Assembly: GCA_963656825.1 (NCBI GenBank)
Contig: CAVKJG010000003.1
Coordinates: 2,243 to 66,242, forward strand
DNA from: Sphaerochaetaceae bacterium
GTDB taxonomy: Bacteria; Bacillota; Clostridia; Oscillospirales; CAG-272
DNA: 64,000 bases
Reading direction: 5' to 3'
The notes under the pieces were generated by a model. It saw nothing but the letters and a program-made list of their open reading frames with translations, was not told the DNA's origin and ran no database searches. The position numbers and the translations under genes are program-made. Positions 14,443-38,143 of this stretch are shown piece after piece. How positions within the stretch are numbered: position 1 is the first letter of the stretch; each line of letters opens with the position of its first letter.

Positions 14443-16745
14443 CATCCTATATATACCGTAAGATTCATCCTTTCGCCGACAGGCGCGATAGTGTTTTTCT
14501 CCGGCTTTATTTCTTTTCCGTCAAGCTCTATTCTGCTTACCTTGTCGCTCTCTCCCGAGCAAACAAATCTGATATTGTACTCACAGCCTCTGAAAAGCTT
14601 CTTTATCGAACATTCTTTCCACGAAAGCGGCAGACACGGCTCGATTCTCAGTCCCTCAAGCTCGGGATGCAAGCCGAAAATATATTCAACCGTACTCTTG
14701 AGCAGCCATGAGCTTGCCGCCGTTCTCCAGCTTTGTCCGGGAGTAGCGTAGCGGTAGCCTGTCTCGGGCGCAAAATACGAATTATACATTGCATAAGGCT
14801 CGCCGCATTTTGTTTCGTATTCGGTGTTTGTCACAAGCATTTTCTTGAGTCCCTCCTCGACCTTGTCGGGGCGATGAAGCATACTGTCAGCCGCAAGCTT
14901 CCATGCGGAAGGATGCAGATAGATTCCGCCGTTATCCTGAACGCCGGGCGCCTTTTCAGCCATAGAGCCTATATAAGAATACTGATGCGAATATGCGGGA
15001 TATGCAAGTCTTGTGCCGAGCTTTGTTTCAAGAATTCTGTCCGCGCTTTCCATGGCGATTCTCTCCTTGCCGTCCTTTGCCGCGCCCGAAAGCACAGCCC
15101 ACAGCTGAGATATAAGGAATATCTTTCCCTCCTCGCAATCCTTTGAACCCATAATTATATCGTCGTCCGTGCGGGCATATATATAATATTCGCCGTCCCA
15201 GCCGTACTTGTCAATGCGCTCGCGCATGATGTCGCCGCGCTCGGCTGAGGTTTTTGCGTCGTCCGTTTTTCCCATAGCGGCGGCAAGTCTGCCGAAGGCG
15301 GCATTGGCTCTGTACCATGCGAGCGTCAGCCATACGGAAACGCCTTTGCCTTCAAGTCCGGCAAAATTCACGCAGTCGTTCCAATCTCCGCCCCATATGC
15401 GAACAAGTCCGTAAAGTCCTGTGAAATTCCACAAAAAATCTACCGAACGGCGAAGATGCTCATATACGCTCGCCTTTGTACCGTTGTTGAATTCAACCTC
15501 TTCATTCAGAAGATTTATATCGCCAAGCTCTTTTACTATCGTGTCTGCGGCAAACGTCATCCATACGGTGTTGTCGGCAAATCTTCTGTCGCGGATCGCA
15601 CCGTCGATTATCGTTCTCGGGGCATAGCCGTTGTCATACTGATATGTAAGAATTCTCTTTAATCTTTCCCACGCAAGACGCGGATTTACGCAGGCAAGAC
15701 ATTCCGTATCGCTTGTAAGATCGCGATATCCATTATGGCGGACTCTTGCCCATCTGCTGCCCATATCGGCGGCGTATTTCATCCAGCCGTTTATAAGCTT
15801 GTCGAAGTCTCCCCACGGAGTGCTTATCTCAACGCCGCAAAGTCTTTCCTTATATTTGTTTTCCATAGCGGAAAATTCTTTTTCGACCTCGTCCGGAGAA
15901 AGCGCGGCTATGCCGTCTTTATCATAGGCAAGACCGAGCGTGAAATGAACCGTCTTTTTCTCACCGGGGAGAAGCGTCATATCGTTTTGCAAAACAAGAC
16001 AAAGCTTTTCGGAGTTGCAGTCCGTGTTCTGACATTTAAGTCCTTTTTCAAGCGCCGAAGGATGCTGTTCATCGCCGTAAGGTCCGATAAAAGCGTTTCT
16101 TCTTGAATCAAAGCCGCTTATTTTATCGCTTGAAGCCATATATGCGTACATCGGACGGCATCTTCCGGGCAATGCGGGATCGGGATAAAACTCAGTATAG
16201 AAATGTCCCCATACTGCATTTTTATCTTCAAAAGCGCCGCCCGTAGCAAGATTATAGCCCTGCGGACGGTATGTTCCGTCAACTTCGGTTTTTGCATACG
16301 AAACAAGCGAAAGCGTTCTTTCCTTATCGGAAGTATTTTCAAGCGTTACGCTCCATATTTCGCGCATACCGTCGCACGGCACGAATATACGCAACGTGCT
16401 TTTTATGCCGTTTTTCTTTTGGCTTATTTCGGTCGAACCGTTTTTGTGAGTACAAAGATAATCGGTATATCCCGAATTCATCGGCAAACCGCATATGCTG
16501 AAATATTTTCCGTCCTCCGAGACGAAAAGATTGCGGTTTGAAACAAGCATGGCTCTTCTGCCCATGTCGTCCTGTGCAAAGCCTTCTCCGTAGCCCACCT
16601 GAGATGTAAAGGTTATGTATTCGTCGTTGTACATATAATTGTACCAATGACGCGGAGTTTCCGGCTCTGTTATATAATATGCGTCCCCTTTTTCGGAAAA
16701 ATGACCGTACTGCTTTGTTCTGTCCATAAAAGCGGTTCCTTTCAA
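14442..16745 (-). CDS. GH94-like glycoside phosphorylase (cellobiose/chitobiose phosphorylase-like)
   Basis: 767 aa. The N-terminus (YYITEPETPRHWYNYMYN) and the catalytic-domain GDWND motif (WGGDWNDCVNFAG) resemble GH94 phosphorylases. Substrate is unknown. Confidence 0.55.
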   Translation of the reverse strand: MKGTAFMDRTKQYGHFSEKGDAYYITEPETPRHWYNYMYNDEYITFTSQVGYGEGFAQDDMGRRAMLVSNRNLFVSEDGKYFSICGLPMNSGYTDYLCTHKNGSTEISQKKNGIKSTLRIFVPCDGMREIWSVTLENTSDKERTLSLVSYAKTEVDGTYRPQGYNLATGGAFEDKNAVWGHFYTEFYPDPALPGRCRPMYAYMASSDKISGFDSRRNAFIGPYGDEQHPSALEKGLKCQNTDCNSEKLCLVLQNDMTLLPGEKKTVHFTLGLAYDKDGIAALSPDEVEKEFSAMENKYKERLCGVEISTPWGDFDKLINGWMKYAADMGSRWARVRHNGYRDLTSDTECLACVNPRLAWERLKRILTYQYDNGYAPRTIIDGAIRDRRFADNTVWMTFAADTIVKELGDINLLNEEVEFNNGTKASVYEHLRRSVDFLWNFTGLYGLVRIWGGDWNDCVNFAGLEGKGVSVWLTLAWYRANAAFGRLAAAMGKTDDAKTSAERGDIMRERIDKYGWDGEYYIYARTDDDIIMGSKDCEEGKIFLISQLWAVLSGAAKDGKERIAMESADRILETKLGTRLAYPAYSHQYSYIGSMAEKAPGVQDNGGIYLHPSAWKLAADSMLHRPDKVEEGLKKMLVTNTEYETKCGEPYAMYNSYFAPETGYRYATPGQSWRTAASSWLLKSTVEYIFGLHPELEGLRIEPCLPLSWKECSIKKLFRGCEYNIRFVCSGESDKVSRIELDGKEIKPEKNTIAPVGERMNLTVYIG

Positions 16746-20252: not shown

Positions 20253-20290
20253 ACGGTCGGAACAAATCACCGTTCCGACCGTTATTTTCT
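20253..20290 (+). terminator. intrinsic terminator after the ABC exporter
   Basis: Stem ACGGTCGGAAC / GTTCCGACCGT (20253-20263 / 20272-20282) followed by a T-rich tract. Confidence 0.6.
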
Positions 20291-20398
20291 TTGAAAAATG
20301 CACAAATAAAAACGCGAAATATCGTCGGTTACAGGGCATTTTTCAGATTACGCCCTCTGCATATCGATATATGCATAACCGATATGAAAAATCAGCAA

Positions 20399-20427
20399 TT
20401 GCATAATCGCAAAGCTTATGATAGAAT
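20399..20427 (+). promoter_or_regulatory. sigma-A-type promoter of the mdh-fumC-hdr-flx-frd operon
   Basis: TTGCAT (20399-20404), 17-nt spacer, TGaTAGAAT extended -10 (20419-20427). It is the only good promoter match I see before 11 tightly packed same-strand genes. Confidence 0.5.
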
Positions 20428-20459
20428 ATGTAAAACAATTATTTTAGGAAGGTGTTTTT

Positions 20460-21404
20460 ATGAACAAGATATCCATCATCGGAACCGGAAGCGTAGGTTC
20501 CACCATCGCATATTCCCTTGCAATTCTCGGAATGGCGTCAGAGATCGTAATGATCGACATCAACAGCGAAAAGGCTCTCGGAGAGGCGCTCGATATCAGA
20601 CAGGGTACTCCCTTCTGCAGCCCCTGCTCGATTTACGCCGGCAGCTATCCCGACGCCGCAGGCTCGAACATCGTTATTCTTACATCCGGAATAGCAAGAA
20701 AGCCCGGTCAGTCGCGTCTTGAGCTCGCTCAGACAAACGTAAACATAACAAAGAGCATCATTCCCGAGATAACAAAGCACGCTCCGGACGCAACGTACAT
20801 AATCGTAAGCAATCCGGTAGATATCCTTACTTATACGTTCCATAAGTTTTCCGATCTTCCCGAAAACCGCATAATCGGTTCGGGAACGATTCTCGATACG
20901 GCTCGTCTCCGCGCAAGACTTTCCGAATACTACAACATCAGCCAGAGCAACGTTCACGCTTACGTTTTCGGCGAGCACGGCGATTCTTCCTTTATTCCGT
21001 GGTCGGTTGCAAACATTTCGAACGTACCGATTTCAAAGTGCAACGAGCTTATATCGCTTCCCGGAATGGAAAGCCCCTCTCTCAATTTTGACGAAATAGA
21101 GCAGTACGTAAGAAAATCCGGCGGCAGAGTTATCGCGCGCAAGGGCGCAACCTTCTATGCGGTTTCGATTTCCGTATGCCACATCTGCAAGTGCCTGCTC
21201 GCAGGTATAGACACAACGATGACCGTTTCCACAATGATGCACGGCGAATACGGTATAGACGACGTGTGCCTGAGCACGCTCAATCTTGTCGGTCACGACG
21301 GAATACGCGGCAAGGTAAATATGCCTCTCACAGACGAGGAAACCGCAAAGCTCCGTTTCAGCGCGGACACGCTCAAAGACGTTATCAAAAATCTCAGCAT
21401 CTGA
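20460..21404 (+). CDS. LDH/MDH-family NAD-dependent 2-hydroxyacid dehydrogenase; LDH scaffold with Arg at the specificity position, predicted malate dehydrogenase
   Basis: 314 aa. Rossmann motif IIGTGSVGS, DTAR, GEHGDS. The segment TSGIARKPGQSRLEL aligns with LDH AGANQKPGETRLDL, so the specificity residue Gln102 is Arg here. Confidence 0.75.
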   Translation: MNKISIIGTGSVGSTIAYSLAILGMASEIVMIDINSEKALGEALDIRQGTPFCSPCSIYAGSYPDAAGSNIVILTSGIARKPGQSRLELAQTNVNITKSIIPEITKHAPDATYIIVSNPVDILTYTFHKFSDLPENRIIGSGTILDTARLRARLSEYYNISQSNVHAYVFGEHGDSSFIPWSVANISNVPISKCNELISLPGMESPSLNFDEIEQYVRKSGGRVIARKGATFYAVSISVCHICKCLLAGIDTTMTVSTMMHGEYGIDDVCLSTLNLVGHDGIRGKVNMPLTDEETAKLRFSADTLKDVIKNLSI

Positions 21405-21424
21405 GAAAAGGACGGTAAACAAAG

Positions 21425-22801
21425 ATGGAATATCGCATAGAACACGACTCCATGGGCGAGGTAAAGGTTCCCGCGGATCGCCTGTGGGCGGCGCAGACCG
21501 AAAGAAGCCATGAAAATTTCAGAATAGGCGTCGGTATAGAAACAATGCCGAGAGAAATAACCCATGCGTTCGGAATTCTCAAAAAGGCTGCCGCTATGGC
21601 AAACGCCGAGCTTAAACCCGAAAAAATGACGCAGGAAAAGCTCGCCGCAATATCGCAGGCGTGCGACGAGGTTATCTCCGGAAGCTTGAACGATCACTTC
21701 CCGCTCGTCGTATGGCAGACAGGCTCCGGCACGCAGTCGAACATGAACGCAAACGAGGTCATCGCGAACAGAGCAAATCAGATAGCGGGCTCAAAGCTCT
21801 GCCACCCCAACGACGATATAAATATGAGTCAGTCCTCAAACGACACCTTCCCCACGGCAATGCACATCTCCGCCGTAACGGCAATAGAGGATAAGCTCCT
21901 CCCCGCGATAGAAACGCTTACAGCCACATTCAGACGTCTTGAAGAAGAAAACGAGGGCATAGTAAAATCCGGAAGAACGCATCTTCAGGACGCAACGCCG
22001 ATTAAATTCAGTCAGGAGATTTCCGGCTGGAGATCGAGCCTTGAAAAAGACGCCGAGCTTCTCCGCATTGCGGTAAAGCCGCTTTACGAGCTTGCTCTCG
22101 GCGGAACGGCTGTCGGCACGGGACTCAACGCCCCCAAAGGCTTTGCCGAGCTTGTCGCCGCAAAGGTGGCGCTGCTCACAGGAAAGCCCTTTGTGACAGC
22201 CGAAAACAAATTCCACGCTCTCACCTCAAAGGACGAGCTTGTATTTGCTCACGGCGCGATAAAGGCAACCGCCTGCGATATGATGAAAATCGCAAACGAC
22301 GTCCGCTGGCTCGCTTCGGGTCCGCGCGACGGTCTTGGCGAAATACACATTCCCGAAAACGAGCCCGGCTCATCCATAATGCCGGGAAAGGTAAATCCCA
22401 CGCAGTGCGAAGCTGTCACGATGGTCGCCGTTCAGGTTATGGGCAACGATGTAGCCGTAGGAATGGCTGCGTCGCAGGGAAACTTCGAGCTCAACGTTTT
22501 CATGCCCGTTGCGGCATACAACTTCCTGCAATCAGCGCGTCTGCTTGCCGAAGCGATAATTTCCTTCAACGTAAACTGCGCCGTCGGCATTACGGCAAAC
22601 AAAGAAAAAATGTATCACAATCTGCACAATTCGCTCATGCTCGTTACGGCGCTCAATCCCTACATAGGTTATGAAAACGCCGCAAAAACCGCAAAGAAAG
22701 CCTTCAAGGACAATATCTCCTTAAAGCAGGCATGCGTCGAGCTCGGATTTCTTACCGCGGAAAAATTCGACGAGGTATTCCATCCCGAACAGATGGTCTG
22801 A
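21425..22801 (+). CDS. fumC: class II fumarate hydratase
   Basis: 458 aa with the signature GSSIMPGKVNPTQCEA, which is the FumC variant rather than the AspA variant. Confidence 0.85.
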   Translation: MEYRIEHDSMGEVKVPADRLWAAQTERSHENFRIGVGIETMPREITHAFGILKKAAAMANAELKPEKMTQEKLAAISQACDEVISGSLNDHFPLVVWQTGSGTQSNMNANEVIANRANQIAGSKLCHPNDDINMSQSSNDTFPTAMHISAVTAIEDKLLPAIETLTATFRRLEEENEGIVKSGRTHLQDATPIKFSQEISGWRSSLEKDAELLRIAVKPLYELALGGTAVGTGLNAPKGFAELVAAKVALLTGKPFVTAENKFHALTSKDELVFAHGAIKATACDMMKIANDVRWLASGPRDGLGEIHIPENEPGSSIMPGKVNPTQCEAVTMVAVQVMGNDVAVGMAASQGNFELNVFMPVAAYNFLQSARLLAEAIISFNVNCAVGITANKEKMYHNLHNSLMLVTALNPYIGYENAAKTAKKAFKDNISLKQACVELGFLTAEKFDEVFHPEQMV

Positions 22802-22819
22802 TATCGAACGGAGGTAAAT

Positions 22820-23626
22820 ATGAAGGTAAGTTATTTTCCCGGCTGCACCCTCAAAACCAAAGCGAAGGACCTTGATCTTTACGCACGCAAAAGCGCCGAA
22901 AAGCTCGGCGTTGAGCTGTGCGAAACAGAGAATTGGCAATGCTGCGGAGGCGTTTTCGTCAGCGCAAAGGACGAAATAGCCACAAAGCTGTCAAGCGTGC
23001 GTGCGCTTGCTTCCGCGCGCGACGCGGAAATGCCGCTTGTAACGGTGTGTTCAGCCTGTCATAACGTAATAAAACAAACAAATGCCGCCATGCGAACGGA
23101 TAAGGATTTTGCCGACAAGGTAAATCTTTATATGTCGCAGGACAAAAACCCTGCCGCCGCTTATCACGGCGAGACGGCTGTCTATCATTATCTTGAGCTT
23201 CTTCGCGACACGGTCGGCTTCGACAAAATAAAGGAAGCCGTGACGCGTCCGCTCACAGGCAAGAAAATCGCCGCATATTACGGCTGTATGCTTCTCCGCC
23301 CGAGCAAGGTGATGCGCTTCGACGATCCCGAAAATCCGAGCATTATGGAGGATTTTATAAGAGCGCTCGGCGCAGAGCCGGTTATTTATCCGCACAGAAA
23401 TGAATGCTGCGGCGGATATGTGGCGCTTGAAGACGCAGACTCCGCAAGAAAAAAGAGTCTTTCCGTAAGCAATGACGCCGCAGATCACGGAGCGGAGCTT
23501 ATAGTTACGGCTTGTCCGCTGTGCAAGTACAATCTTGTCAAAAACGAAAGCCGGATTCCCGTTGTATACTTTACCGAACTGCTCGCGGAAGCGCTCGGCA
23601 TAAAGGAGGATAAAAATGCAGAATAA
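22820..23626 (+). CDS. HdrB-like CCG-domain protein (heterodisulfide reductase subunit B / SdhE / TfrB C-terminal type)
   Basis: 268 aa with two CCG domains: FPGCTLK...NWQCCGG...CSACHN and YYGCMLL...NECCGG...CPLCKYN. Confidence 0.8.
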   Translation: MKVSYFPGCTLKTKAKDLDLYARKSAEKLGVELCETENWQCCGGVFVSAKDEIATKLSSVRALASARDAEMPLVTVCSACHNVIKQTNAAMRTDKDFADKVNLYMSQDKNPAAAYHGETAVYHYLELLRDTVGFDKIKEAVTRPLTGKKIAAYYGCMLLRPSKVMRFDDPENPSIMEDFIRALGAEPVIYPHRNECCGGYVALEDADSARKKSLSVSNDAADHGAELIVTACPLCKYNLVKNESRIPVVYFTELLAEALGIKEDKNAE

Positions 23627-24008
23627 AACAGAGCTTTTGCGCGAACAGGTTCTCCGCATAAGCGGCGTAAACCCCAGAAAGTGCATGCGCTGCGGAAAGT
23701 GCTCGGCAACCTGCCCGTCCTATGACGAAATGGAATATCATCCTCATCAGTTCGTTTATATGGCCGAAAACGGCGATATCGAAACCCTGATGAAATCGCC
23801 GTCCGTTTATAAATGTCTTTCATGCTTTGCCTGCGTTGACCGTTGCCCGAGAGGCGTGGAGCCGGCAAAGCTTATAGAAGCCGTCCGTCTTTGCGTCATA
23901 CGCGAAAAGGGCGGCGACAGAATGACGGCAGACGATATTCCCTCCCGCATAGACGAGGACACGCCTCAGCAGGCGATCGTAAGCGCAATGAGAAAATATT
24001 CAAAATAA
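23616..24008 (+). CDS. HdrC-like 2x[4Fe-4S] ferredoxin subunit
   Basis: 130 aa with CMRCGKCSATCP and CLSCFACVDRCP. The start overlaps the hdrB-like stop by 11 nt. Confidence 0.75.
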   Translation: MQNKTELLREQVLRISGVNPRKCMRCGKCSATCPSYDEMEYHPHQFVYMAENGDIETLMKSPSVYKCLSCFACVDRCPRGVEPAKLIEAVRLCVIREKGGDRMTADDIPSRIDEDTPQQAIVSAMRKYSK

Positions 24009-24027
24009 AGAAAGGAGAAAACATCAA

Positions 24028-26022
24028 ATGCAGAGAATCGGAGTTTTTGTCTGCCATTGCGGCACCAACATTGCCGGCACGGTAGACGTAAAAGCCGTGG
24101 CAGAAGCGCTGAAAAACGAACAGGGCGTTGTTTTCTCCACGGATTATCAGTATATGTGTTCCCAATCGGGACAAAACATAATAAAGGAAGCAATCGCAGA
24201 GCATCACCTGACAGGTATCGTCGTTTGCTCCTGCTCGCCGCGTATGCACGAAGCAACCTTCCGCAAAACGGCAGCTTCCGCAGGACTCAATCCCTATATG
24301 GTTGAGATAGCGAATATCCGCGAGCAATGCTCGTGGGTGCATAAGGACATGCCTATAGGCACGGAAAAAGCAATAATTCTTGCAAAGGCAGCCGTGGCAA
24401 AGGTAAATCTCAACGCTCCGCTCACCCCCGGAGAAAGCCCCGTGACAAAGCGCGCGCTCGTTATCGGCGGCGGTATCGCCGGCATACAGACGGCGCTTGA
24501 CATTGCCGACGCAGGCTTCCCCGTCGATATAGTCGAAACAAAGCCGACAATCGGCGGAAAAATGGCTCAGCTCGACAAAACCTTCCCCACTCTCGACTGC
24601 GCGGCATGTATTCTCACACCGAAAATGGTTGACGTGGCTCAAAACGAAAAAATACGCGTTTTCTCGTATTCCGAGGTGACCGACGTAAAGGGCTTTGTAG
24701 GCAATTTTGATGTAACGATAAAACGCAAGGCTCGCTACGTAAAGGAGGATATCTGCACCGGCTGCGGACTCTGCACGGAAAAATGTCCGCAGAAAAAAGT
24801 CCCGAACGAATTCAATCTCGGAATGGACAACCGTCACGCAATATATATTCCCTTTGCGCAGGCTGTGCCGAAGGTCGCAACAATCGACCCGAATTACTGC
24901 ACAATGCTGAAAACAGGCAAATGCGGCGTATGCTCAAAGGTCTGTTCCGCAGGCGCTATCGATTACACCGCAAAGGACGAATTCATCGAAGAAAAATACG
25001 GCGCTATCGTCGTTGCGACGGGCTTCAATCCCATTTCAATGGAGAAATTCGACGAATTCGCATATTCGCAGTCAAAGGACGTCATCACCTCGCTTGAGCT
25101 TGAACGTCTTATGAACGCCGCAGGTCCTACGGGCGGCACGCTTCTCCGTCCGTCCGACGGCAAGCATCCGCACACGATAGTTTTTGTTCAGTGTGTAGGC
25201 TCGCGCTGTGCGGCTTGCGCCGAAAAGGGCAAGGAATATTGCTCAAAAATATGCTGTATGTACACGGCAAAGCACGCCATGCTCATACGCGACAAATATC
25301 CCGACACGGATGTATATGTTTTCTATATAGACGTCCGCACGCCCGGAAAGAACTTCGACGAATTCTATCGCCGCGCGGTTGAGGAATACGGAGTTCACTA
25401 CATAAAGGGTATGGTCGGAAAGGTATGCCCCGACGGCGACAAGCTTAAAGTTCAGGGCTCGGATCTCATCTACGGAAAACAGATCCATATCGACGCCGAC
25501 CTCGTCGTTCTTGCGGCGGCTATCGAGCCGGATAAATCCGCAAGACACCTTGCGACGCTTCTTACGGCAAGCATGGACACAAACGACTTCTTCACGGAGG
25601 CGCATCCCAAGCTCCGTCCCGTTGAAAGTCCGACGGCTGGCGTGTTCCTTTCGGGAACATGTCAGGGACCGAAGGATATTCCCGAAACGGTCGCTCAGGC
25701 AGGAGCCGCGGCTTCAAAGGTTATCGGACTTCTCTGCAAGGACAAGCTGACGGGTAACCCCTGCGTCGCTCACTCGGACGAGATGATGTGCAACGGCTGT
25801 TCGACCTGCGAAAAGGTCTGCCCGTACGGTGCGATTTCGTATATCGACAAGGAATTCCGTATGCCCGACAGAACGACAAAGCTTCGCCGCGTGGCAGTCG
25901 TAAACGAGGCTGTATGTCAGGGCTGCGGCGCATGTACGGTCGCCTGTATGTCCGGCGCAATGGATCTGAAAGGATTTTCAAGCAAACAAATTATGGCGGA
26001 GGTTGACGCAATATGCAAGTAA
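24028..26022 (+). CDS. HdrA-like FAD / Fe-S subunit (heterodisulfide reductase subunit A family, bifurcating-flavin type)
   Basis: 664 aa. N-terminal cluster motif (VCHCGTNIAG), FAD fold (LVIGGGIAGIQTALDIA), an inserted ferredoxin domain and a C-terminal one (CTGCGLCTEKCP, CGVCSKVCS, CNGCSTCEKVCP, CQGCGACTVAC). Confidence 0.8.
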   Translation: MQRIGVFVCHCGTNIAGTVDVKAVAEALKNEQGVVFSTDYQYMCSQSGQNIIKEAIAEHHLTGIVVCSCSPRMHEATFRKTAASAGLNPYMVEIANIREQCSWVHKDMPIGTEKAIILAKAAVAKVNLNAPLTPGESPVTKRALVIGGGIAGIQTALDIADAGFPVDIVETKPTIGGKMAQLDKTFPTLDCAACILTPKMVDVAQNEKIRVFSYSEVTDVKGFVGNFDVTIKRKARYVKEDICTGCGLCTEKCPQKKVPNEFNLGMDNRHAIYIPFAQAVPKVATIDPNYCTMLKTGKCGVCSKVCSAGAIDYTAKDEFIEEKYGAIVVATGFNPISMEKFDEFAYSQSKDVITSLELERLMNAAGPTGGTLLRPSDGKHPHTIVFVQCVGSRCAACAEKGKEYCSKICCMYTAKHAMLIRDKYPDTDVYVFYIDVRTPGKNFDEFYRRAVEEYGVHYIKGMVGKVCPDGDKLKVQGSDLIYGKQIHIDADLVVLAAAIEPDKSARHLATLLTASMDTNDFFTEAHPKLRPVESPTAGVFLSGTCQGPKDIPETVAQAGAAASKVIGLLCKDKLTGNPCVAHSDEMMCNGCSTCEKVCPYGAISYIDKEFRMPDRTTKLRRVAVVNEAVCQGCGACTVACMSGAMDLKGFSSKQIMAEVDAICK

Positions 26023-26447
26023 ATGAATATAAGCCCCTTATCGTAGCGTTTTGCTGTAACTGGTGTTCATATGCCGGCGCAGACCTTGCGGGAAACAACC
26101 GATTGAGCTATCCCGCCGACGTAAAGATAATTCGCGTTCCCTGCTCATGCAGAGTAAACCCGATGTTCATTCTCCGCGCTTTTCAGAGAGGCGCGGACGG
26201 AGTTATAATCTGCGGCTGCCATCCCGGCGATTGCCATTACACCTCCGGAAACTACTATACGCGCAGACGTATGGCTCTGCTTTTCTCGATGCTCGACTAT
26301 CTCGGCATTGAAAGAGAAAGAACCCGCGTCGAATGGGTATCTGCGGCGGAGGGCGCAAAATTCGCCGCAACAATGAACGATTTTGCAACAAAAGTCGCCG
26401 CGCTCGGCGAAAACAAGAGATTGGAGGACTTAAGATGCAAGAAATAA
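26013..26447 (+). CDS. MvhD/FlxD-like Fe-S protein (methyl-viologen-reducing hydrogenase delta subunit family)
   Basis: 144 aa with FCCNWCSYAGADLAG ... VPCSCRV ... IICGCHPGDCHY. Overlaps the hdrA stop. Confidence 0.8.
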   Translation: MQVNEYKPLIVAFCCNWCSYAGADLAGNNRLSYPADVKIIRVPCSCRVNPMFILRAFQRGADGVIICGCHPGDCHYTSGNYYTRRRMALLFSMLDYLGIERERTRVEWVSAAEGAKFAATMNDFATKVAALGENKRLEDLRCKK

Positions 26448-27427
26448 ATCGTGCGGCTTTGATAAAAAGAGCGTCCGAGCTGCTTTCGGACGGCACTGCT
26501 GACAGAGTTCTCGGCTGGAAGGCAGGCGAATTCGACTATGATGTCACTCCTGCGGTTTTCAACAGCTCCGAGGAGCTTGAAAAAGATTTTGTATGGGGCG
26601 ATTTCTGCGGCGCAAACTTTTCAAAATATCTCATAAAAGAAACACAGAAGGGCGATGGAAAGGTGCTTGTTTTTCTCAAGCCCTGCGACACATACAGCTT
26701 CAATCAGCTTCTTACCGAGCATCGCTTCGACCGTGAAAAGGTCTATGTCGTGGGTATTCCTTGCGACGGCATGCTCGACGTTACAAAGATAAAATCGCTT
26801 GCCGACGGTATTTCGTCGGTTAAAAGCGAGGGCGACACCGTAAAGATAGAAACCCTTTACGACGGTACGATCTCCGGAAAAAGAGCAGAGCTTCTTTCCG
26901 ACAGATGCGTTCACTGCAAGTCCAAAAAGCACGTTTCCTACGACGAGCTTCTCGGCGATGACGGAGACGTTCTCGACAGCGGACGCTTCGACGAGGTTGA
27001 AAAAATAGAAAAAATGACACCGGACGAGCGCTTTGCGTTCTGGCAGGGAGAGCTTTCCCGCTGTATACGCTGCAACGCCTGCCGCGACGTCTGCCCTGCC
27101 TGCACCTGCGAAAAGTGCGTTTTCGACAATCCCGATTCGGGCGTTGAAAACAAGGCTGCGGCAAACTCCTTTGAGGACAGTATGTTCCACATCATCCGCG
27201 CGTTCCACGTTGTCGGAAGATGCACGGACTGCGGCGAATGCTCAAGAGTATGTCCTCAGCACATACCGCTTCATCTTCTCAACCGCAAGTTCATAAAGGA
27301 TATAGATAATTTTTACGGCGAATATCAGGCAGGAGAAACGGTAGGAAGCCGCGCTCCGATAGTGAACTATTCACAGGATGATATAGAGCCGGCAAAAGCT
27401 GTGGAAAGAGGTGGCGACAATGCGTAA
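26435..27427 (+). CDS. FlxC-like (AsrA/HydB-like) iron-sulfur protein
   Basis: The ORF track starts at 26333 inside mvhD. ATG 26435 (MQEINRAAL) has a GGAGG RBS. Fe-S motifs: CIRCNACRDVCPACTCEKC and CTDCGECSRVCP. Confidence 0.65.
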   Translation: MQEINRAALIKRASELLSDGTADRVLGWKAGEFDYDVTPAVFNSSEELEKDFVWGDFCGANFSKYLIKETQKGDGKVLVFLKPCDTYSFNQLLTEHRFDREKVYVVGIPCDGMLDVTKIKSLADGISSVKSEGDTVKIETLYDGTISGKRAELLSDRCVHCKSKKHVSYDELLGDDGDVLDSGRFDEVEKIEKMTPDERFAFWQGELSRCIRCNACRDVCPACTCEKCVFDNPDSGVENKAAANSFEDSMFHIIRAFHVVGRCTDCGECSRVCPQHIPLHLLNRKFIKDIDNFYGEYQAGETVGSRAPIVNYSQDDIEPAKAVERGGDNA

Positions 27428-28445
27428 AATATCGCTTGACAAGCTGAATTCGCTTTTCTCCGCCATAGCGGAAAATGAAACGCTTTATCTGCCCGTCGAT
27501 ACAAAAGCGGGCGCAAGCTATGAAAAATGGCACGACGGCGCAGTCCTTTCGGACGCGCTCAACACCGTAAGAAGCGCAAAGGATTTCTTCTTTCCGCAGA
27601 CGGAAAATCTTATGGATTTCAAGGTTGAAGGAAAGAATATTGAAATTATCGATACAAGAGAGGAATGCGAGGATTTCGTTATTTTCGGAGTGCGCGCATG
27701 CGACGTCAAGAGCTTTGAGGTTCTCGACAGAGTTTTCCTTTCCGAGCCTGTTGACAGCTACTACAAAAACCGTCGCGAGCACGGCGTTATAATGTCGCTC
27801 GCCTGCACAAAACCGCACGAAACGTGCTTCTGCGGCACTTTCGGCATAGACGCTTCGTCGCCTGAAGGCGATATCGTCTGCCACAAGACAGATGACGCCC
27901 TCTATATGGACGCAAAGACCGAAAAGGGCGAAGCTCTTCTTTCAAGGCTTTCTGCCGTTACGGAAGAAACCGACGATAAAGCCGTTGAAGAACAGAAGAA
28001 AGTCACAAAGGAGAGACTTGCAAGGCTCCCGCTCGCAAGCCTTTCGGCGGACAGCTTCGGCGCCGGCAAAACAGAAGAGTTCTTCGGCGCTCCCGAATGG
28101 AAGGAGCTTTCTCAGTCATGTCTCGGATGCGGAACATGCACGTTCGTATGCCCCACTTGTCAGTGCTACGATATAAAGGATTTCAACACAGGTCACGGAG
28201 TAAAGCGTTTCCGCTGCTGGGACTCGTGCATGTATTCGGACTTTACAAAAATGTCCGCAGGTCAGCCGAGACTTACTCAGCTTGAACGCTTCCGTCAGAG
28301 ATTTATGCATAAACTTGTGTATTATCCCACAAACAACGACGGACTTTTCTCGTGCGTCGGCTGCGGCAGATGTATTTCAAAATGTCCCATTCAGATGAAT
28401 ATTGTAAAGGTAATGAAAAAGCTGGGAGGAAACAAAAATGATTGA
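27420..28445 (+). CDS. FlxB-like (anaerobic sulfite reductase AsrA-like) iron-sulfur protein
   Basis: ATG 27420 (MRKISLDKL) is preceded by GAGGTG; the track lists GTG 27411. Fe-S motifs: CLGCGTCTFVCPTCQCYD and CVGCGRCISKCP. Confidence 0.65.
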   Translation: MRKISLDKLNSLFSAIAENETLYLPVDTKAGASYEKWHDGAVLSDALNTVRSAKDFFFPQTENLMDFKVEGKNIEIIDTREECEDFVIFGVRACDVKSFEVLDRVFLSEPVDSYYKNRREHGVIMSLACTKPHETCFCGTFGIDASSPEGDIVCHKTDDALYMDAKTEKGEALLSRLSAVTEETDDKAVEEQKKVTKERLARLPLASLSADSFGAGKTEEFFGAPEWKELSQSCLGCGTCTFVCPTCQCYDIKDFNTGHGVKRFRCWDSCMYSDFTKMSAGQPRLTQLERFRQRFMHKLVYYPTNNDGLFSCVGCGRCISKCPIQMNIVKVMKKLGGNKND

Positions 28446-29271
28446 TGTAAAAGAACCTCTTATCCCCAAAATAGGCGTCGTTACCGATATACGCATAGAC
28501 ACTCCCGACGTAAAGACATTCAGAGTTGTGACACCCGACGGCAAAAAAGCCTTTGAGCATAAGCCCGGTCAGTGCGCGATGCTTTCGATTCCCGGCGTGG
28601 GAGAAGCGATGTTTTCAATAACCTCCTCGCCGACAAACGAAGAATTTATGGAATTTTCCATTAAAAAATGCGGCTGCGTCACAAAGTGGCTTCACTCAAT
28701 GGAGGTAGGTCAGCAGATAACGATAAGAGGACCCTACGGAAGACCCTTCCCCGTGGATACGGAATTTGTCGGTCACGATATGCTCTTTATCGCGGGCGGT
28801 ATCGGACTTGCTCCGCTCCGCTCGGTAATAAACTACTGCCGTCACTACCGCGACCGCTACGGAAAGATAGACATAGTCTACGGATCACGTAGCATGCAGG
28901 ACCTTGTCGATTACAAAGAAATAATCGACGAATGGGCAAATGACGCCGGCGTGACCGTTCATCTGACGATCGACCGCGAACAGCCCGAATGGTCGGGACA
29001 CGTCGGATTTGTGCCGAACTATGTAAAAGAACTCGGATTTTCTCCGGACAAAATTGCTATTCTCTGCGGTCCTCCGATAATGATCAAGTTCACCCTTGCG
29101 GGACTTACAGAGCTCGGCTTTGAAAAAACCCAGGTCTACACAACGCTTGAGCTTCGTATGAAATGCGGAATAGGCAAGTGCGGAAGATGCAACGTCGGAG
29201 CAAAATATGTCTGCAAGGACGGACCTGTATTCCGTCTTGACGAGCTTGACGAGCTTCCGAATGAATATTGA
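28438..29271 (+). CDS. FlxA-like (AsrB / hydrogenase gamma / PyrK-like) FAD-NAD(P)H oxidoreductase with C-terminal 2Fe-2S
   Basis: 277 aa. FNR-like fold (PGQCAMLSIPG...ITSSP, LFIAGGIGLAPL) and a C-terminal cluster (CGIGKCGRCNVG...VCKDGPVF). Confidence 0.7.
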   Translation: MIDVKEPLIPKIGVVTDIRIDTPDVKTFRVVTPDGKKAFEHKPGQCAMLSIPGVGEAMFSITSSPTNEEFMEFSIKKCGCVTKWLHSMEVGQQITIRGPYGRPFPVDTEFVGHDMLFIAGGIGLAPLRSVINYCRHYRDRYGKIDIVYGSRSMQDLVDYKEIIDEWANDAGVTVHLTIDREQPEWSGHVGFVPNYVKELGFSPDKIAILCGPPIMIKFTLAGLTELGFEKTQVYTTLELRMKCGIGKCGRCNVGAKYVCKDGPVFRLDELDELPNEY

Positions 29272-29290
29272 TAAAAAGGAGATATACAGC

Positions 29291-29965
29291 ATGGAAAATA
29301 TGGTTGATATATATTTGTTCGGCAAGAAATATTCCGTTCCGGACGATCTGACTATAATGCGCGCAATGGAATATGCGGGATATCAGCTTGTGCGCGGCTG
29401 CGGATGCCGTAACGGCTTCTGCGGAGCGTGCGCGACTATTTACCGCATAAAAGGCGACAGAACTCTTCGCACCTGTCTTGCCTGTCAGACGAAGGTTGAA
29501 AACAATATGTATATTGCGACTCTTCCCTTCTTCCCGCTCATAAAGCAGGTTTACGACATTGAAAAAATAAAGCCCACAGAGCAGATAATGATGCAGCTTT
29601 ATCCCGAAATATACGCCTGCGTAGGCTGTAACGCCTGCACAAAGGCTTGTCCGCAGGGATTAAACGTTATGCAGTACATCGCATACGCTCAGCGCGGCGA
29701 ATATGAAAAATGCGCCGAAGAATCGTTTGACTGCGTTATGTGCGGAATATGCTCGTCGCGTTGTCCTGCCGGAATATCTCATCCGCAGGTGGCAATGCTC
29801 GCGCGCCGACTGAACGGCAAATATCTCGCGCCGAAGTCCGAGCATCTTGAAAATCGCGTAAAAGAGATAAAGGACGGCACATTTACGGAGCTTATAGAAG
29901 CGCTTATGGGCAAGCCCGTGGAGGAGCTCAAAGAGCTTTACAACAACAGAGATATTGAAAAATAA
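29291..29965 (+). CDS. FrdB/SdhB-like iron-sulfur subunit (2Fe-2S plus two 4Fe-4S motifs)
   Basis: ATG 29291 (MENMVDIYLFGKKY) has an AAGGAG RBS; the track lists an upstream start at 29207. Motifs: CGCRNGFCGAC...CLAC, then CVGCNACTKACP and CVMCGICSSRCP. Confidence 0.7.
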   Translation: MENMVDIYLFGKKYSVPDDLTIMRAMEYAGYQLVRGCGCRNGFCGACATIYRIKGDRTLRTCLACQTKVENNMYIATLPFFPLIKQVYDIEKIKPTEQIMMQLYPEIYACVGCNACTKACPQGLNVMQYIAYAQRGEYEKCAEESFDCVMCGICSSRCPAGISHPQVAMLARRLNGKYLAPKSEHLENRVKEIKDGTFTELIEALMGKPVEELKELYNNRDIEK

Positions 29966-29979
29966 GGAGGGCGGAAAGA

Positions 29980-31575
29980 ATGTATTCGGAAAAATTTCAG
30001 AAATCGCTTGCTGCCGTAGAAGAGGCAAGAGAAGCAAACATAGCGTATGAACCCGCCCGTATGACCGCAAAGGAAAAGGATGAGCTGCTTGCGGCATATC
30101 ATCCCGACTATAAAAAAAGCGAGTTTGCAACGCTTAAAATCGGAGCAAACAAGGGCGAGGATGTTCCCCACGAGCTTTGCGAAATGCTTCAGGCTCACAG
30201 CCGCATTTCAGCCTCCGACGTTGACCTTTCGGACGTAACGTATGACGTTGACGTTCTTATAATCGGCGGCGGCGGCGCAGGCGCTTCTGCGGCTATCGAA
30301 GCCGATAATGTCGGCGCAAAGACAATGATAGTTACAAAGCTCCGCATAGGCGACGCAAACACAATGATGGCTGAGGGCGGAATTCAGGCGGCTGACAAGC
30401 CCGGAGATTCTCCTGCCATACATTTTCTTGACGCTTTCGGCGGCGGTCACTTTGCCGCAAAAAGAGAGCTTCTCGAAAAGCTCGTCTGCGACGCTCCCGA
30501 GGCTATTCAGTGGCTCAACAACCTCGGCGTTGAGTTCGACAAGGCTCCCGACGGCACAATGATAACGACTCACGGCGGCGGTACGTCGCGCAAGCGTATG
30601 CACGCCGCAAAGGACTATTCCGGCGCGGAAATAATGAGAACGCTTCGTGACGAGGTTCTCAATCGCGGAATACCCGTTGTCGATTTTACCTCGGCAATTG
30701 AGCTTATTCTCGACGAAAACGGCAAGGCTGCCGGTGCGGTTCTTATGAATATGGAAACAAAAGAGCTTATGGTCGCAAGAGCAAAAACAGTTATCATTGC
30801 GACAGGCGGCGCAGGACGTATGCACTATCAGGGCTTCCCCACGTCAAACCATTACGGCGCGACGGCGGACGGCCTTGTTCTCGGCTACAGAGTCGGCGCA
30901 AAGCTGCTCTATGCCGATACGCTTCAGTATCACCCGACGGGCGCGGCGTTTCCTCAGCAGATATTCGGCGCGCTTGTAACGGAAAAGGTTCGTTCGCTCG
31001 GCGCAAAGCTCGTAAACCGCGACGGTAAAGTATTTATGCATCCGCTTGAAACGCGCGACGTTGCGGCGGCGTCGATAATAAGAGAATGCTCCGACCGCGA
31101 CGAAGGCATTGATACCGGCAACGGCAAAGCCGTATGGCTCGATACGCCGATGATTGAAAAAATCGGCGGAAAGGGCACAATCGAACGCAGAATCCCCGCG
31201 ATGATGCGTATGTTCGGTAGCTACGGCATCGACATAAGAAAAGAGCCTATCCTCGTTTATCCGACGCTCCATTATCAGAACGGCGGACTTGACATTGACG
31301 CAAGCGGTATGACGACAAACGTTGAAAACCTCTTCGTCGCAGGCGAGGCTGTCGGCGGAATTCACGGCAGAAATCGTCTGATGGGCAATTCTCTGCTCGA
31401 TATAATCGTTTTCGGAAGAAGCGCCGGAAGAAACGCCGCCGAAAAGTCAAAGGACGTAAAGGTCGGCACGCTCACGCTTGACCATATCGCAAAATTCGAC
31501 GCGGAGCGCGAGGCGGCAGGTATCGTTACGGACGCCGTTTCACCCAAGCTCCTGCCCGATTACAGAAGAAAATAA
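29980..31575 (+). CDS. soluble fumarate reductase/succinate dehydrogenase/L-aspartate oxidase-family flavoprotein (FrdA/TfrA-like)
   Basis: 531 aa. FAD fold VLIIGGGGAGASAAIEA begins about 100 aa in. Also has MAEGGIQAA (no His for covalent FAD), YHPTG and GIHGRNRLMGNSLLDIIVFG. Confidence 0.75.
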   Translation: MYSEKFQKSLAAVEEAREANIAYEPARMTAKEKDELLAAYHPDYKKSEFATLKIGANKGEDVPHELCEMLQAHSRISASDVDLSDVTYDVDVLIIGGGGAGASAAIEADNVGAKTMIVTKLRIGDANTMMAEGGIQAADKPGDSPAIHFLDAFGGGHFAAKRELLEKLVCDAPEAIQWLNNLGVEFDKAPDGTMITTHGGGTSRKRMHAAKDYSGAEIMRTLRDEVLNRGIPVVDFTSAIELILDENGKAAGAVLMNMETKELMVARAKTVIIATGGAGRMHYQGFPTSNHYGATADGLVLGYRVGAKLLYADTLQYHPTGAAFPQQIFGALVTEKVRSLGAKLVNRDGKVFMHPLETRDVAAASIIRECSDRDEGIDTGNGKAVWLDTPMIEKIGGKGTIERRIPAMMRMFGSYGIDIRKEPILVYPTLHYQNGGLDIDASGMTTNVENLFVAGEAVGGIHGRNRLMGNSLLDIIVFGRSAGRNAAEKSKDVKVGTLTLDHIAKFDAEREAAGIVTDAVSPKLLPDYRRK

Positions 31576-31601
31576 TTTACAAAAAAGGCGGTTAACTCAA
31601 A

Positions 31602-31928
31602 ATGAATATTACTGATCTGCTCGAAGCTTTAACTATATTCTGCTTTGGTCTTTCATGGCCGATATCAATAAGAAAATCGTGGACATCACGCACGGCGAAA
31701 GGCAAAAGTCTTTTCTTTGAGATATTCCTTCTCATAGGCTATGCCTGCGGTATTGCAAGAAAGATAATACAGACAGTCGACGGAAGCTCCGGTTTCCTTT
31801 TCTGGCTCAGCTTTTTCTTCTATGTGCTCAACTTCATTGAAATTTCAATCGACGTTGCGCTCTATTTCAGAAACAAAAAGCTCGACGAAGAAGCCGATCT
31901 TCTTGCGGCAGAAAACAAGAAAGCATAA
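31602..31928 (+). CDS. small 3-TM membrane protein (PQ-loop/SemiSWEET-like topology possible), last gene of the operon
   Basis: 108 aa with three hydrophobic helices. Sits 26 nt after the frdA-like gene and before the terminator. No family confidently recognised. Confidence 0.45.
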   Translation: MNITDLLEALTIFCFGLSWPISIRKSWTSRTAKGKSLFFEIFLLIGYACGIARKIIQTVDGSSGFLFWLSFFFYVLNFIEISIDVALYFRNKKLDEEADLLAAENKKA

Positions 31929-31936
31929 GACAAAAA

Positions 31937-31974
31937 AACTCCGACAGTGTAAACGCTGTCGGAGTTTTTGTTTT
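31937..31974. terminator. intrinsic terminator (bidirectional) closing the hdr-flx-frd operon
   Basis: Stem AACTCCGACAG / CTGTCGGAGTT (31937-31947 / 31956-31966) with a T-run; an A-run lies upstream. Confidence 0.7.
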
Positions 31975-38129: not shown

Positions 38130-38143
38130 TCAGCACCTCCCGA

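Follow-up and report, generated by a model that had tools for sequence, protein, structure and literature searches.

Ferredoxin-coupled fumarate reduction via Flx-Hdr was proposed in 2019/2020 for an operon of Pseudoclostridium thermosuccinogenes termed the 'succinate operon' (preprint by Koendjbiharie & van Kranenburg 2019, cited in PMC7282089). This operon is reported to be co-transcribed and co-regulated, responding as a unit in RNA-seq, and high H2 leads to a collapse of succinate formation in this organism (PMC7282089). A second group of examples is given by the rTCA clusters of tubeworm symbionts ('Ca. Endoriftia') and Thioflavicoccus mobilis, in which flxABCD-hdrABC are interspersed with tfrAB (PMC6315080, PMC11636981, PMC13147460), and for the symbionts it was explicitly suggested in 2019 and 2024 that bifurcation passes electrons from NADH to both fumarate and ferredoxin. 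The ferredoxin-coupled fumarate reductase is thus an already published idea for related operons, and the novelty implied by the original prediction for the locus described here does not hold, the same hypothesis being in print (PMC7282089, PMC6315080, PMC11636981, PMC13147460).

The present locus lies in a 64-kb window, i.e. the whole stretch of DNA analysed, and comprises 12 co-directional genes spanning 20460-31928 on the + strand. Fumarate hydratase, seven Flx-Hdr genes, two fumarate reductase genes and a trailing hypothetical protein are shared with P. thermosuccinogenes (PMC7282089), a likeness in published architecture, not one of sequence comparison; in contrast, an LDH-type malate dehydrogenase leads the present operon and the host belongs to a mesophilic gut Clostridia lineage. 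The window also encodes a GH94 and a cohesin protein, a context of gut saccharolytic Clostridia. The features are as follows:

20253-20282, + strand: upstream hairpin terminator (stem 11-13 bp, 7 GC pairs, T-run)
20360-20386, + strand: operator-like element CATATCGATATATGCATAACCGATATG, directly 5' of the -35 box (conserved block, alignment A2)
20399-20427, + strand: candidate sigma-70-type promoter (TTGCAT, 17 nt, TG-n-TAGAAT, extended -10)
20460-21404, + strand: mdh, LDH-family malate dehydrogenase (natural Q102R; Ldh_1_N/C)
21425-22801, + strand: fumC, class II fumarate hydratase (Lyase_1 and FumaraseC_C; TIGR00979)
22820-23626, + strand: hdrB, HdrB/SdhE/TfrB-C-terminus-like (two CCG motifs, both complete)
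23616-24008, + strand: hdrC, HdrC-like 2x[4Fe-4S] protein (Fer4_17/Fer4_8)
24028-26022, + strand: hdrA, full-length HdrA of 664 aa (FAD and six predicted [4Fe-4S] sites)
26013-26447, + strand: flxD, MvhD/FlxD [2Fe-2S] adaptor (PF02662 FlpD, E 3.6e-55)
26435-27427, + strand: flxC, FlxC-like Fe-S protein (4Fe-4S dicluster; weak FrhB_FdhB_C match)
27420-28445, + strand: flxB, FlxB-like Fe-S protein of the AsrA/sulfhydrogenase-beta type (Fer4_22)
28438-29271, + strand: flxA, NAD(P)H-binding FAD/[2Fe-2S] protein of the AsrB/HydG type (FAD_binding_6, NAD_binding_1 and DHODB_Fe-S_bind)
29291-29965, + strand: frdB, FrdB-like Fe-S subunit (Fer2_4/Fer2_3 and Fer4)
29980-31575, + strand: frdA, TfrA/FrdA-like fumarate reductase flavoprotein (FAD_binding_2 over residues 91-472)
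31602-31928, + strand: accessory membrane ORF, 108 aa, three predicted helices (weak, sub-cutoff DUF2304 match)
31934-31969, + strand: closing intrinsic terminator (stem 16 bp, 7 GC pairs, T-run)

All 11 catalytic ORFs and the small ORF were recovered on one strand as first described, with the same tight spacing (gaps of 20, 18, 19, 19, 14 and 26 nt; overlaps of 11, 10, 13, 8 and 8 nt), and profile searches returned domains matching the earlier gene labels, with refinements for the MDH and FrdA only. A strong hairpin terminator lies on either side: the upstream one ends an ABC-transporter gene and forms the 5' boundary of the operon, while the expected single 3' terminator outranks all other hairpins in the region. 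The promoter, originally called good, is weaker than that, with a -35 box matching the consensus at 3/6 and a -10 box (TAGAAT) at 5/6 positions and a score under the threshold of the promoter scan; what stands is the extended -10 (TGnTATAAT), which is conserved upstream in relatives. The 27 nt CATATCGATATATGCATAACCGATATG element occurs once in the window (chance expectation 0), and exact-consensus copies precede the operon at four further loci (L002, L003, L024 and L063).

The seven subunit types of FlxABCD-HdrABC from Desulfovibrio vulgaris (Ramos et al. 2015, as cited in PMC7282089 and PMC6315080) are all present, with the expected domains, i.e. FAD/NAD(P)H/2Fe-2S in FlxA, Fe-S in FlxB/C, an MvhD-like FlxD, and HdrA/B/C. 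Compared with what these sources give for D. vulgaris, the order here is hdrBCA-flxDCBA, a single operon joins the module to genes for FrdAB, MDH and fumarase, and the proposed acceptor is fumarate via FrdAB, not the DsrC disulfide. The FlxA-like protein matches HydG/AsrB models, the FlxB-like protein ShyB/HydB/AsrA models and the structure 9nez_B, and the FlxD-like protein also the MvhD portion of the HdrA2 model. HdrA itself scores 790 bits against the HdrA2 model over positions 1-641 and 685 bits against M. wolfeii HdrA (5odc_A), a bifurcating HdrA of known structure, over residues 3-661. Indeed, when the methanogen MvhADG-HdrABC complex (PDB 5ODC and relatives) is taken for comparison, all aligned Cys motifs of HdrA are kept, HdrB and HdrC align to solved subunits and an MvhD-type adaptor is present, but here FlxABC (NAD(P)H) takes the place of a [NiFe] hydrogenase as the donor module, and the proposed acceptor is a C=C bond via FrdAB instead of CoM-S-S-CoB. 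HdrA is the candidate bifurcation site.

On the other hand, Flx-Hdr might just wire NAD(P)H to FrdAB, leaving ferredoxin untouched. Such a plain enzyme was assumed in the 2026 model of Blautia luti, and the soluble five-subunit NADH-dependent fumarate reductase of Hydrogenobacter thermophilus is treated as non-bifurcating (PMC12773636 and PMC13147460, respectively). The latter, FrdABCDE (Miura et al. 2008), resembles the present system, as far as the summary in PMC13147460 describes it, in being cytoplasmic, multi-subunit, quinone-independent and NADH-using, and differs in its five subunits. Moreover, electron transfer from NADH to fumarate is already exergonic alone. To our knowledge, the H. 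thermophilus enzyme has no HdrA or Flx module, and ferredoxin coupling has presumably not been proposed for it. However, a full HdrA would be needless for a simple wire, yet no variation was seen among 149 distinct Clostridial orthologues in the Cys residues of its two ferredoxin domains, N-terminal domain and CC motif. HdrA is 72-94 % identical from one Clostridia family to another, and nine redox subunits are kept for a reaction doable by one or two proteins. Since the H2-sensitive succinate formation in P. thermosuccinogenes (PMC7282089) is also consistent with ferredoxin coupling, we regard a non-bifurcating oxidoreductase as an unlikely alternative.

The remaining redox subunits point to a known fumarate reductase. 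The TfrB model is tiled by the FrdB-like (positions 17-94), HdrC-like (132-219) and HdrB-like (262-487) proteins, so that, by predicted domains, these three and the FrdA-like protein form a core corresponding to a split archaeal thiol:fumarate reductase TfrAB. The HdrB-like protein scores 159 bits with SdhE and 155 bits with HdrB, and aligns over its full length with methanogen HdrB (8rvv_B), Cys motifs included; the HdrC-like protein matches HdrC and QmoC models, and the FrdB-like protein, carrying a [2Fe-2S] and two CxxCxxCxxxCP motifs, matches the dhsB model and, distantly, SdhB. Like Methanothermobacter TfrAB (Heim et al. 1998, as cited in PMC6315080), the core is soluble and anchor-free, with TfrA as the best model; as far as that citation allows comparison, it differs by the splitting of TfrB into three polypeptides, an extra dicluster domain, a flavoprotein lacking the C-terminal third (positions 5-410 of 546 matched) and having a new N-terminal extension, unmet curated cutoffs, and the attachment to HdrA and Flx. 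The absence of an FrdC/FrdD-type anchor was confirmed by the domain search, which found no FrdC/FrdD or Sdh_cyt domain in the operon. The 108-aa ORF (family A3; low-confidence single-sequence structure model) is found at only 36/220 related loci and is thus not a conserved anchor.

The kinship with TfrAB, which uses CoM-SH and CoB-SH, also allows for a thiol-mediated process in two steps, in which Flx-Hdr and NADH reduce a disulfide, of a small thiol or a DsrC-like protein, after which re-oxidation of these thiols by the Tfr-like core would serve to reduce fumarate. Both CCG motifs, at which Hdr and Tfr handle disulfides, are complete in HdrB, and TfrA is the nearest model of the flavoprotein. 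In Clostridia, CoM-SH or CoB-SH would not be expected as donors. A DsrC-like carrier was left open for the symbionts (PMC11636981), but neither a DsrC/TusE-like nor a thiol-biosynthesis gene was found in the operon. Furthermore, since the operon encodes only one CCG protein, a CCG domain being absent from the FrdB-like subunit, a disulfide shuttle would be short of a second thiol-handling site; disulfide reduction and thiol oxidation would share one site, with no gain over direct transfer. As the HdrC-HdrB-FrdB order in addition parallels the continuous cluster chain of TfrB, a thiol intermediate seems quite unlikely.

The scores of the flavoprotein reach no curated equivalog cutoff. The label 'FrdA/TfrA-like' is upheld by the best model, TfrA (326 bits, under the cutoff of 718), and by motifs aligned with E. 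coli FrdA H232, T244, H355 and the NRL(M)GNS Arg, and needs qualification in that the C-terminal domain and the covalent-FAD His are missing, while an N-terminal extension of 90 residues is conserved. An ETRD Arg is also present and, going by family motifs, probably corresponds to FrdA R287. The AF2 model (pLDDT 88.6) has E. coli FrdA (1kf6_A, TM 0.71) as its best fold match. An L-aspartate oxidase, or a reductase of another unsaturated acid, could be considered given the substantial NadB scores (265 bits with TIGR00551), NadB structures among the fold matches, and an Asn in place of the covalent-FAD His, as in NadB and soluble enzymes. Nevertheless, all NadB cutoffs are missed (453 for TIGR00551), both carboxylate-binding His/Arg pair motifs align with FrdA, and an FrdB-like partner is obligate: frdB adjoins frdA in 254/257 loci, and one natural FrdB-FrdA fusion exists (P0122). 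With MDH and fumarase of either class co-encoded and neither nadA nor nadC adjacent, an L-aspartate oxidase, which the original prediction had named as fatal to its case, or a reductase of another unsaturated acid is extremely improbable.

The head gene product, predicted as an 'MDH-type dehydrogenase', exceeds the L-LDH model cutoffs, stays under the MDH cutoff and has only LDHs as top PDB matches. Its scores are thus those of the LDH family, whereas the segment GIARKPGQSR, aligned to GAAQKPGETR, carries Arg at the Q102 specificity position, kept in 50/50 syntenic orthologues. Judged by this residue, it is an LDH-derived malate dehydrogenase, co-encoded with fumarase and a soluble fumarate reductase. 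FumC exceeds its cutoff (TIGR00979, 698 versus 665 bits), and a class I fumarase substitutes for it in the same cluster at 71 loci, e.g. in Lachnospiraceae. These genes also bear on the direction of the pathway: flavin-based bifurcation can in principle run either way, relatives are known from sediment and digester lineages, and the Hdr-Flx direction is given as unknown for the symbionts (PMC11636981), so that succinate oxidation driven by reduced ferredoxin and yielding NADH (confurcation) could be imagined, as in syntrophic succinate/propionate oxidisers. Yet mdh and fumC head the operon, its surroundings (GH94, cohesin protein) are those of gut saccharolytic Clostridia, and cultured carriers excrete succinate (PMC12773636, PMC7282089), making mainly reverse or reversible operation very unlikely.

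Synteny between the hdr/flx and frd-like genes was conserved, as predicted. All seven hdr/flx genes lie beside frdBA in 144/144 Clostridia loci, counting only those with enough upstream or flanking DNA, and colinearity was complete in each locus set (53/53, 61/61 and 30/30 Clostridia loci). Carriers include cultured Blautia, Christensenella tenuis and Yeguia hominis; Blautia luti carries the cluster (L196, L198), forms 0.42 succinate per glucose, and shows NADH-MDH and MV-fumarate reductase activity with highly transcribed frdAB (PMC12773636). At the level of gene order, this linkage is not due to chance, and the core is obligately accompanied by MvhD/FlxD, a full-length HdrA and a predicted NAD(P)H-oxidising FlxABC. 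The narrower hdrC-hdrB-frdB-frdA core is retained in 29/41 distant loci of Archaea and Bacteria; its range extends to Bathyarchaeota, Asgard archaea, Acidobacteriota and Planctomycetota. Many Acidobacteriota and Planctomycetota relatives have hdrCB-frdBA with no HdrA or Flx inside 10 kb, indicating that the core can use another donor and that bifurcation is not intrinsic to it. One Bathyarchaeota locus (L081) neighbours a 2-oxoacid:ferredoxin oxidoreductase, as in the symbiont rTCA clusters; their context is autotrophic (korABCD, aclAB, pntAB), whereas the present one is fermentative (mdh, fumC, no kor genes).

Taken together, the best explanation, to which we assign a probability of roughly 0.6, is an NAD(P)H-dependent, ferredoxin-reducing (bifurcating) fumarate reductase. 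All parts of this prediction open to sequence analysis are borne out, and synteny and flavoprotein identity, two of the points originally named as able to refute it, did not tell against it; the operon probably yields succinate while reducing ferredoxin. FlxA would be the entry point, oxidising NADH or NADPH, and the flavin of HdrA would receive the electrons by way of FlxB/C and FlxD and split each pair. Fumarate (about +30 mV) would take up the downhill electron, handed on by HdrC, the CCG clusters of HdrB, the clusters of FrdB and the FAD of FrdA, and the uphill one would reach ferredoxin through the HdrA ferredoxin-domain clusters, giving 2 NADH + fumarate + Fd(ox) -> 2 NAD+ + succinate + Fd(red); judging by the TfrB domain order, FrdB would dock on HdrB or HdrC. 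In the searchable literature, we found no biochemical proof of ferredoxin coupling for any member and, as originally stated, apparently no biochemically characterised enzyme of such a subunit set.

Reduced ferredoxin may then feed Rnf or a hydrogenase; genes for Rnf, hydrogenase, menaquinone or a second fumarate reductase were not found within the 64-kb window. The operon would thus form the reductive branch from oxaloacetate via malate and fumarate to succinate in a menaquinone-independent fermenter, and neither quinones nor a membrane anchor would be needed to conserve the energy of fumarate reduction, a hypothesis open to testing in culture.

The proposed mdh-fumC-hdrBCA-flxDCBA-frdBA operon, including its small membrane ORF, was recovered with the same 12 ORFs, intergenic gaps of 14-26 nt and five start/stop overlaps of 8-13 nt, and the subunit labels given to its products in the original prediction are upheld by Pfam and NCBIfam matches. 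The features of the region, in positions of the window, are as follows.

Features of the operon and its flanks
20253-20282: strong hairpin terminator at the end of the upstream ABC-transporter gene
20360-20386: conserved 27-nt element, candidate operator
20460-31928, + strand: all 12 ORFs of the operon
20460-21404, + strand: mdh
22820-29271, + strand: genes for all seven FlxABCD-HdrABC subunit types
31602-31928, + strand: small membrane protein (108 aa), three helices predicted, motif FG-SWP-S..S.SR..G.S invariant (alignment A3 of its family)
31934-31969: terminator, the strongest of the region, 3' of the last ORF

By sequence inspection the promoter reads TTGCAT, 17 nt, TG-n-TAGAAT. It is weaker than the 'good' match it had been taken for and is unlisted by the consensus scan, and we retain it as a candidate solely because its extended -10 is conserved in related species. 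The top-scoring promoter-like matches of the region (10/12) fall inside flxD, at 26180-26209. Just 5' of the -35 lies the 27-nt element CATATCGATATATGCATAACCGATATG, which contains two ATCGATA/CCGATAT-like half-sites, occurs a single time in the 64-kb window and is kept in related species with the consensus GTATATCGATAAATGCAATACCGATATG; this element is probably an operator for a regulator of the operon. An exact palindrome upstream, TGCATAT-N4-ATATGCA, was also considered but is not conserved, the broader 27-nt block being the conserved unit.

Automatic annotation would mislabel the first gene as a lactate dehydrogenase. The mdh product scores above the curated cutoffs for L-lactate dehydrogenase and below the one for malate dehydrogenase, and its best PDB matches are all LDHs. 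At specificity position 102, however, it carries an arginine (GIARKPGQSR), i.e. a natural Gln102-to-Arg exchange, which is invariant in 50/50 syntenic orthologues. In dogfish LDH numbering, Arg at this position gives specificity for oxaloacetate and Gln specificity for pyruvate, as reported by Wilks et al. in 1988. Arg102 and its invariance therefore argue that 'MDH' is correct as a function, so that the earlier label 'MDH-type' holds for function and fails for family, the product appearing to be a malate dehydrogenase by function and an LDH by family. The second gene, fumC, encodes a class II fumarase (TIGR00979 above cutoff). Lachnospiraceae lack class II fumC and have a two-subunit class I fumarase after frdA instead; class I fumarase adjoins the cluster in 71 loci, Asgard archaea among them. 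This non-orthologous replacement of the fumarase is strong evidence for fumarate as the substrate.

The flavoprotein itself is atypical. It has a FAD_binding_2 domain, and its best curated model is TfrA (NF004900), against which it reaches 326 bits, below the cutoff of 718, and matches only positions 5-410 of 546. It lacks the C-terminal helical domain, with no Succ_DH_flav_C match, the His that binds 8-alpha-FAD covalently is replaced by Asn (GDANTMMAEGG versus RSHTVAAEGG), and an N-terminal extension of 90 residues with HPDY and GxNxGE motifs is conserved family-wide. The closest structural match of its confident AlphaFold model (pLDDT 88.6) is E. coli FrdA (1kf6_A, TM 0.71), with which the active-site motifs QYHPTG, LVTEK, HYQNGG and NRLMGNS are aligned. 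We take the fumarate-site residues to be His232, Thr244, Arg287, His355 and Arg390 in E. coli FrdA numbering; the Arg of ETRD is presumably the Arg287 equivalent, placed by family motifs in a stretch where the alignment is loose. As judged from these motifs, the dicarboxylate-binding and catalytic residues of the FrdA/SdhA/Fcc3 superfamily appear to be present. L-aspartate oxidase (NadB), which the original prediction had named as the identity that would speak against it, is excluded as far as sequence reaches: TIGR00551 gives 265 bits against a cutoff of 453, the other NadB models also stay under cutoff, the active-site motifs are of the FrdA type, and the flavoprotein always occurs with an Fe-S partner and in a fumarase/MDH context, rather than alone beside nadA/nadC as expected of NadB. 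This partner, the FrdB-like protein, carries [2Fe-2S] and 2x[4Fe-4S] clusters, and the two are naturally fused in P0122 (727 aa), a representative relative of the flavoprotein, with the FrdB-like protein at the N-terminus.

The TfrB model is covered piecewise by the FrdB-like (17-94), HdrC-like (132-219) and HdrB-like (262-487) proteins, all under the cutoff of 385, with the segments of the single TfrB polypeptide spread over three ORFs. Since the three proteins tile the model, the core of the enzyme can be read as a split thiol:fumarate-reductase-like enzyme; TfrAB itself draws its electrons from CoM-SH and CoB-SH. Domain searches found no Fumarate_red_C/D or Sdh_cyt domain in the operon proteins, and the SdhE model gives the HdrB-like protein 159 bits (cutoff 500), in line with the absence of a FrdC/FrdD-type anchor noted in the original prediction. 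In contrast to the membrane-bound quinol:fumarate reductases and succinate dehydrogenases of types A-E, both the anchor and the covalent-FAD His are absent here, and no membrane anchor or quinone-related gene was found in the operon or in the rest of the 64-kb window. The small membrane ORF was rejected as a FrdC/D-like anchor, given that Pfam yields only a sub-threshold DUF2304 match and that just 36 of 220 loci carry it (184 lack it). Its single-sequence model is poor (pLDDT 68.6, pTM 0.39), and in Lachnospiraceae it sits 3' of the class I fumarase.

According to Pfam and NCBIfam domains, the Flx-Hdr module comprises FlxA (FAD, NAD(P)H and [2Fe-2S]; AsrB/HydG-like), the Fe-S proteins FlxB and FlxC (AsrA/sulfhydrogenase-beta-like), an MvhD-like FlxD, an HdrB-like protein with two CCG domains, an HdrC-like dicluster protein and an HdrA of 664 aa. 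HdrA can be aligned end to end with 5odc_A, from the bifurcating enzyme of known structure (685 bits), and, by its domains, would be of the bifurcating methanogen type, with the N-terminal cluster domain, the FAD domain with its CC motif, the inserted and C-terminal ferredoxin domains and the Cys ligands. Across 149 distinct Clostridial orthologues, no Cys varies in the N-terminal domain, the CC motif or either ferredoxin domain. For the FlxABCD-HdrABC of Desulfovibrio, the coupling of NADH oxidation to ferredoxin and disulfide reduction has, to our knowledge, only been proposed and not demonstrated.

In the mechanism we envisage, electrons from NAD(P)H would pass through FlxA, FlxB/C and FlxD to the FAD of HdrA. 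From there, the high-potential branch would run through HdrC, the CCG clusters of HdrB, FrdB and the FAD of FrdA to fumarate, and the low-potential branch through the clusters of the HdrA ferredoxin domains to ferredoxin. With standard potentials of -320 mV for NADH, +33 mV for fumarate and about -420 to -500 mV for ferredoxin, the energetics of bifurcation work. A plain, non-bifurcating wire from NAD(P)H to FrdAB would use the same proteins, but the HdrA Cys kept in all 149 orthologues are not obviously needed for it. A thiol shuttle between Flx-Hdr and the fumarate-reducing core is less likely because the operon encodes a single CCG protein and a CCG domain is lacking in the FrdB-like one. 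In P. thermosuccinogenes, high H2 abolishes succinate formation (PMC7282089), which we count toward bifurcation. The alignment of HdrA with a bifurcating enzyme, its invariant Cys, the energetics and the H2 effect thus support, indirectly, the interpretation of the complex as a candidate electron-bifurcating fumarate reductase.

While supported as a candidate, this idea is not new, as the hypothesis is already in print. In the 'succinate operon' of P. thermosuccinogenes (CDQ83_RS03315-03365), seven Flx-Hdr genes stand between a fumarase gene and two fumarate-reductase genes, with an ORF for a hypothetical protein at the end that its authors speculated to be a succinate transporter. This operon is co-regulated in RNA-seq (PMC7282089); compared by its published description, and in architecture only, it matches the window operon in gene content and order. 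The same layout without mdh is found in L172, a locus of a relative. Fumarate/ferredoxin coupling has also been proposed where tfrAB lies beside flxABCD-hdrABC in rTCA clusters (PMC6315080), co-expression data have followed up that proposal (PMC11636981), and a 2026 paper still terms the coupling a suggestion (PMC13147460). Blautia luti was reported in 2026 to form 0.42 succinate per glucose, to show NADH-dependent MDH and viologen-dependent fumarate reductase activities and to transcribe frdAB highly, and that study modelled a simply NADH-dependent enzyme with Hdr and Flx unmentioned (PMC12773636); the whole cluster is present in both B. luti loci (L196 and L198). The literature searched contained proposals and transcript data only and no biochemical characterisation of such an enzyme, which agrees with the earlier statement that none with this subunit set was known. 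The window operon is a further case of a predicted, published kind, not a discovery.

The cluster is common. With the flavoprotein as query against a collection of one genome per species, more than 588 species-level relatives were found, and a second scan likewise gave more than 588 confirmed ones. Four scans with four FrdA queries yielded 273 distinct loci, onto which the twelve window proteins were mapped. The synteny check suggested with the original prediction came out in favour of the linkage: among Clostridia loci with at least 7.4 kb of upstream DNA, the seven hdr/flx genes are colinear with frdBA in 53/53, 61/61 and 30/30 (144/144 in total), and frdB adjoins frdA in 254 of 257 loci. 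What these data show are the parts of the complex and their obligate joint inheritance. Cultured carriers include Yeguia hominis, Christensenella tenuis, Mediterraneibacter agrestimuris and, within Blautia, B. schinkii, B. luti, B. fusiformis, B. acetigignens, B. glucerasea and B. aquisgranensis; Marvinbryantia is represented by metagenome-assembled genomes (MAGs) only, and many further MAGs come from human, ruminant, chicken and termite gut. Two Anoxynatronum loci (L106, A. sibiricum; L107, A. buryatiense) have this gene set rearranged, with frdBA first, hdrBCA-flxDCBA downstream of it and a fumC-like gene of 38% identity upstream.

When P0121, a distant representative relative with 54% identity, was used as query, the family reached Bathyarchaeota, Asgard archaea and Thermoplasmata among the Archaea, and Chloroflexota, Acidobacteriota, Planctomycetota, Gemmatimonadota, Eisenbacteria and Omnitrophota among the Bacteria. 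Of the 41 distant loci, 29 keep hdrC-hdrB-frdB-frdA, 19 have HdrA and MvhD adjacent, and only seven, all Clostridia-like, hold the full Flx set. Loci of Acidobacteriota, Planctomycetota and Gemmatimonadota (L132-L142, including L135 and L138, and similar ones) have only the four-gene unit hdrC-hdrB-frdB-frdA, which resembles a soluble fumarate reductase; HdrA and Flx genes are missing from the surrounding 10 kb. In a Bathyarchaeota MAG (L081, 3043-5607), three 2-oxoacid:ferredoxin oxidoreductase subunits lie directly 5' of hdrA-mvhD-hdrC-hdrB-frdB-frdA, an arrangement reminiscent of the kor/tfr/flx-hdr clusters in tubeworm symbionts (PMC6315080) and suggests a possible ferredoxin producer-consumer pairing, as proposed for those rTCA clusters.

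Besides the operon, the 64-kb window holds housekeeping, sporulation and carbohydrate genes only; a search for Rnf, PEPCK and menaquinone genes found none. Next to a 1334-aa ORF without Pfam match lies a cohesin-domain protein of 596 aa (36339-42148, - strand), and a GH94 cellobiose/cellodextrin phosphorylase-type gene lies at 14442-16745; taken together, the cohesin and GH94 genes would fit a lifestyle that is cellulosome-like or based on plant-fibre degradation.

Textbook fumarate respiration requires menaquinone and a membrane anchor, and succinate is a major gut cross-feeding and signalling metabolite. We see roughly an even chance that the operon encodes a true flavin-based bifurcating fumarate reductase, the first HdrA-type bifurcase with a C=C bond instead of a disulfide as high-potential acceptor; that it is the main, hitherto overlooked succinate route in abundant quinone-independent gut Firmicutes (Blautia, Christensenellales, Oscillospirales), with more ATP via Rnf; and that its hdrCB-frdBA core is an ancient, modular soluble fumarate reductase that many bacterial phyla have in common with Bathyarchaeota and Asgard archaea and that combines with different donor modules, namely FlxABCD, HdrA-MvhD alone or none nearby. 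What the present analysis adds to the published proposals is the breadth of distribution, the split-TfrAB core also found in archaea, the displacement of the fumarase, the LDH-type MDH, the atypical flavoprotein and cultured organisms suited to an assay. Since the cluster is present in cultured strains with measured fumarate reductase activity, the decisive assay is feasible now. If the enzyme is bifurcating, the drop of ~350 mV from NADH to fumarate would be conserved as reduced ferredoxin, models of ATP yield and H2 production, such as that of Blautia luti from 2026, would change, and HdrA-based bifurcation would be extended to a carbon-carbon double bond.
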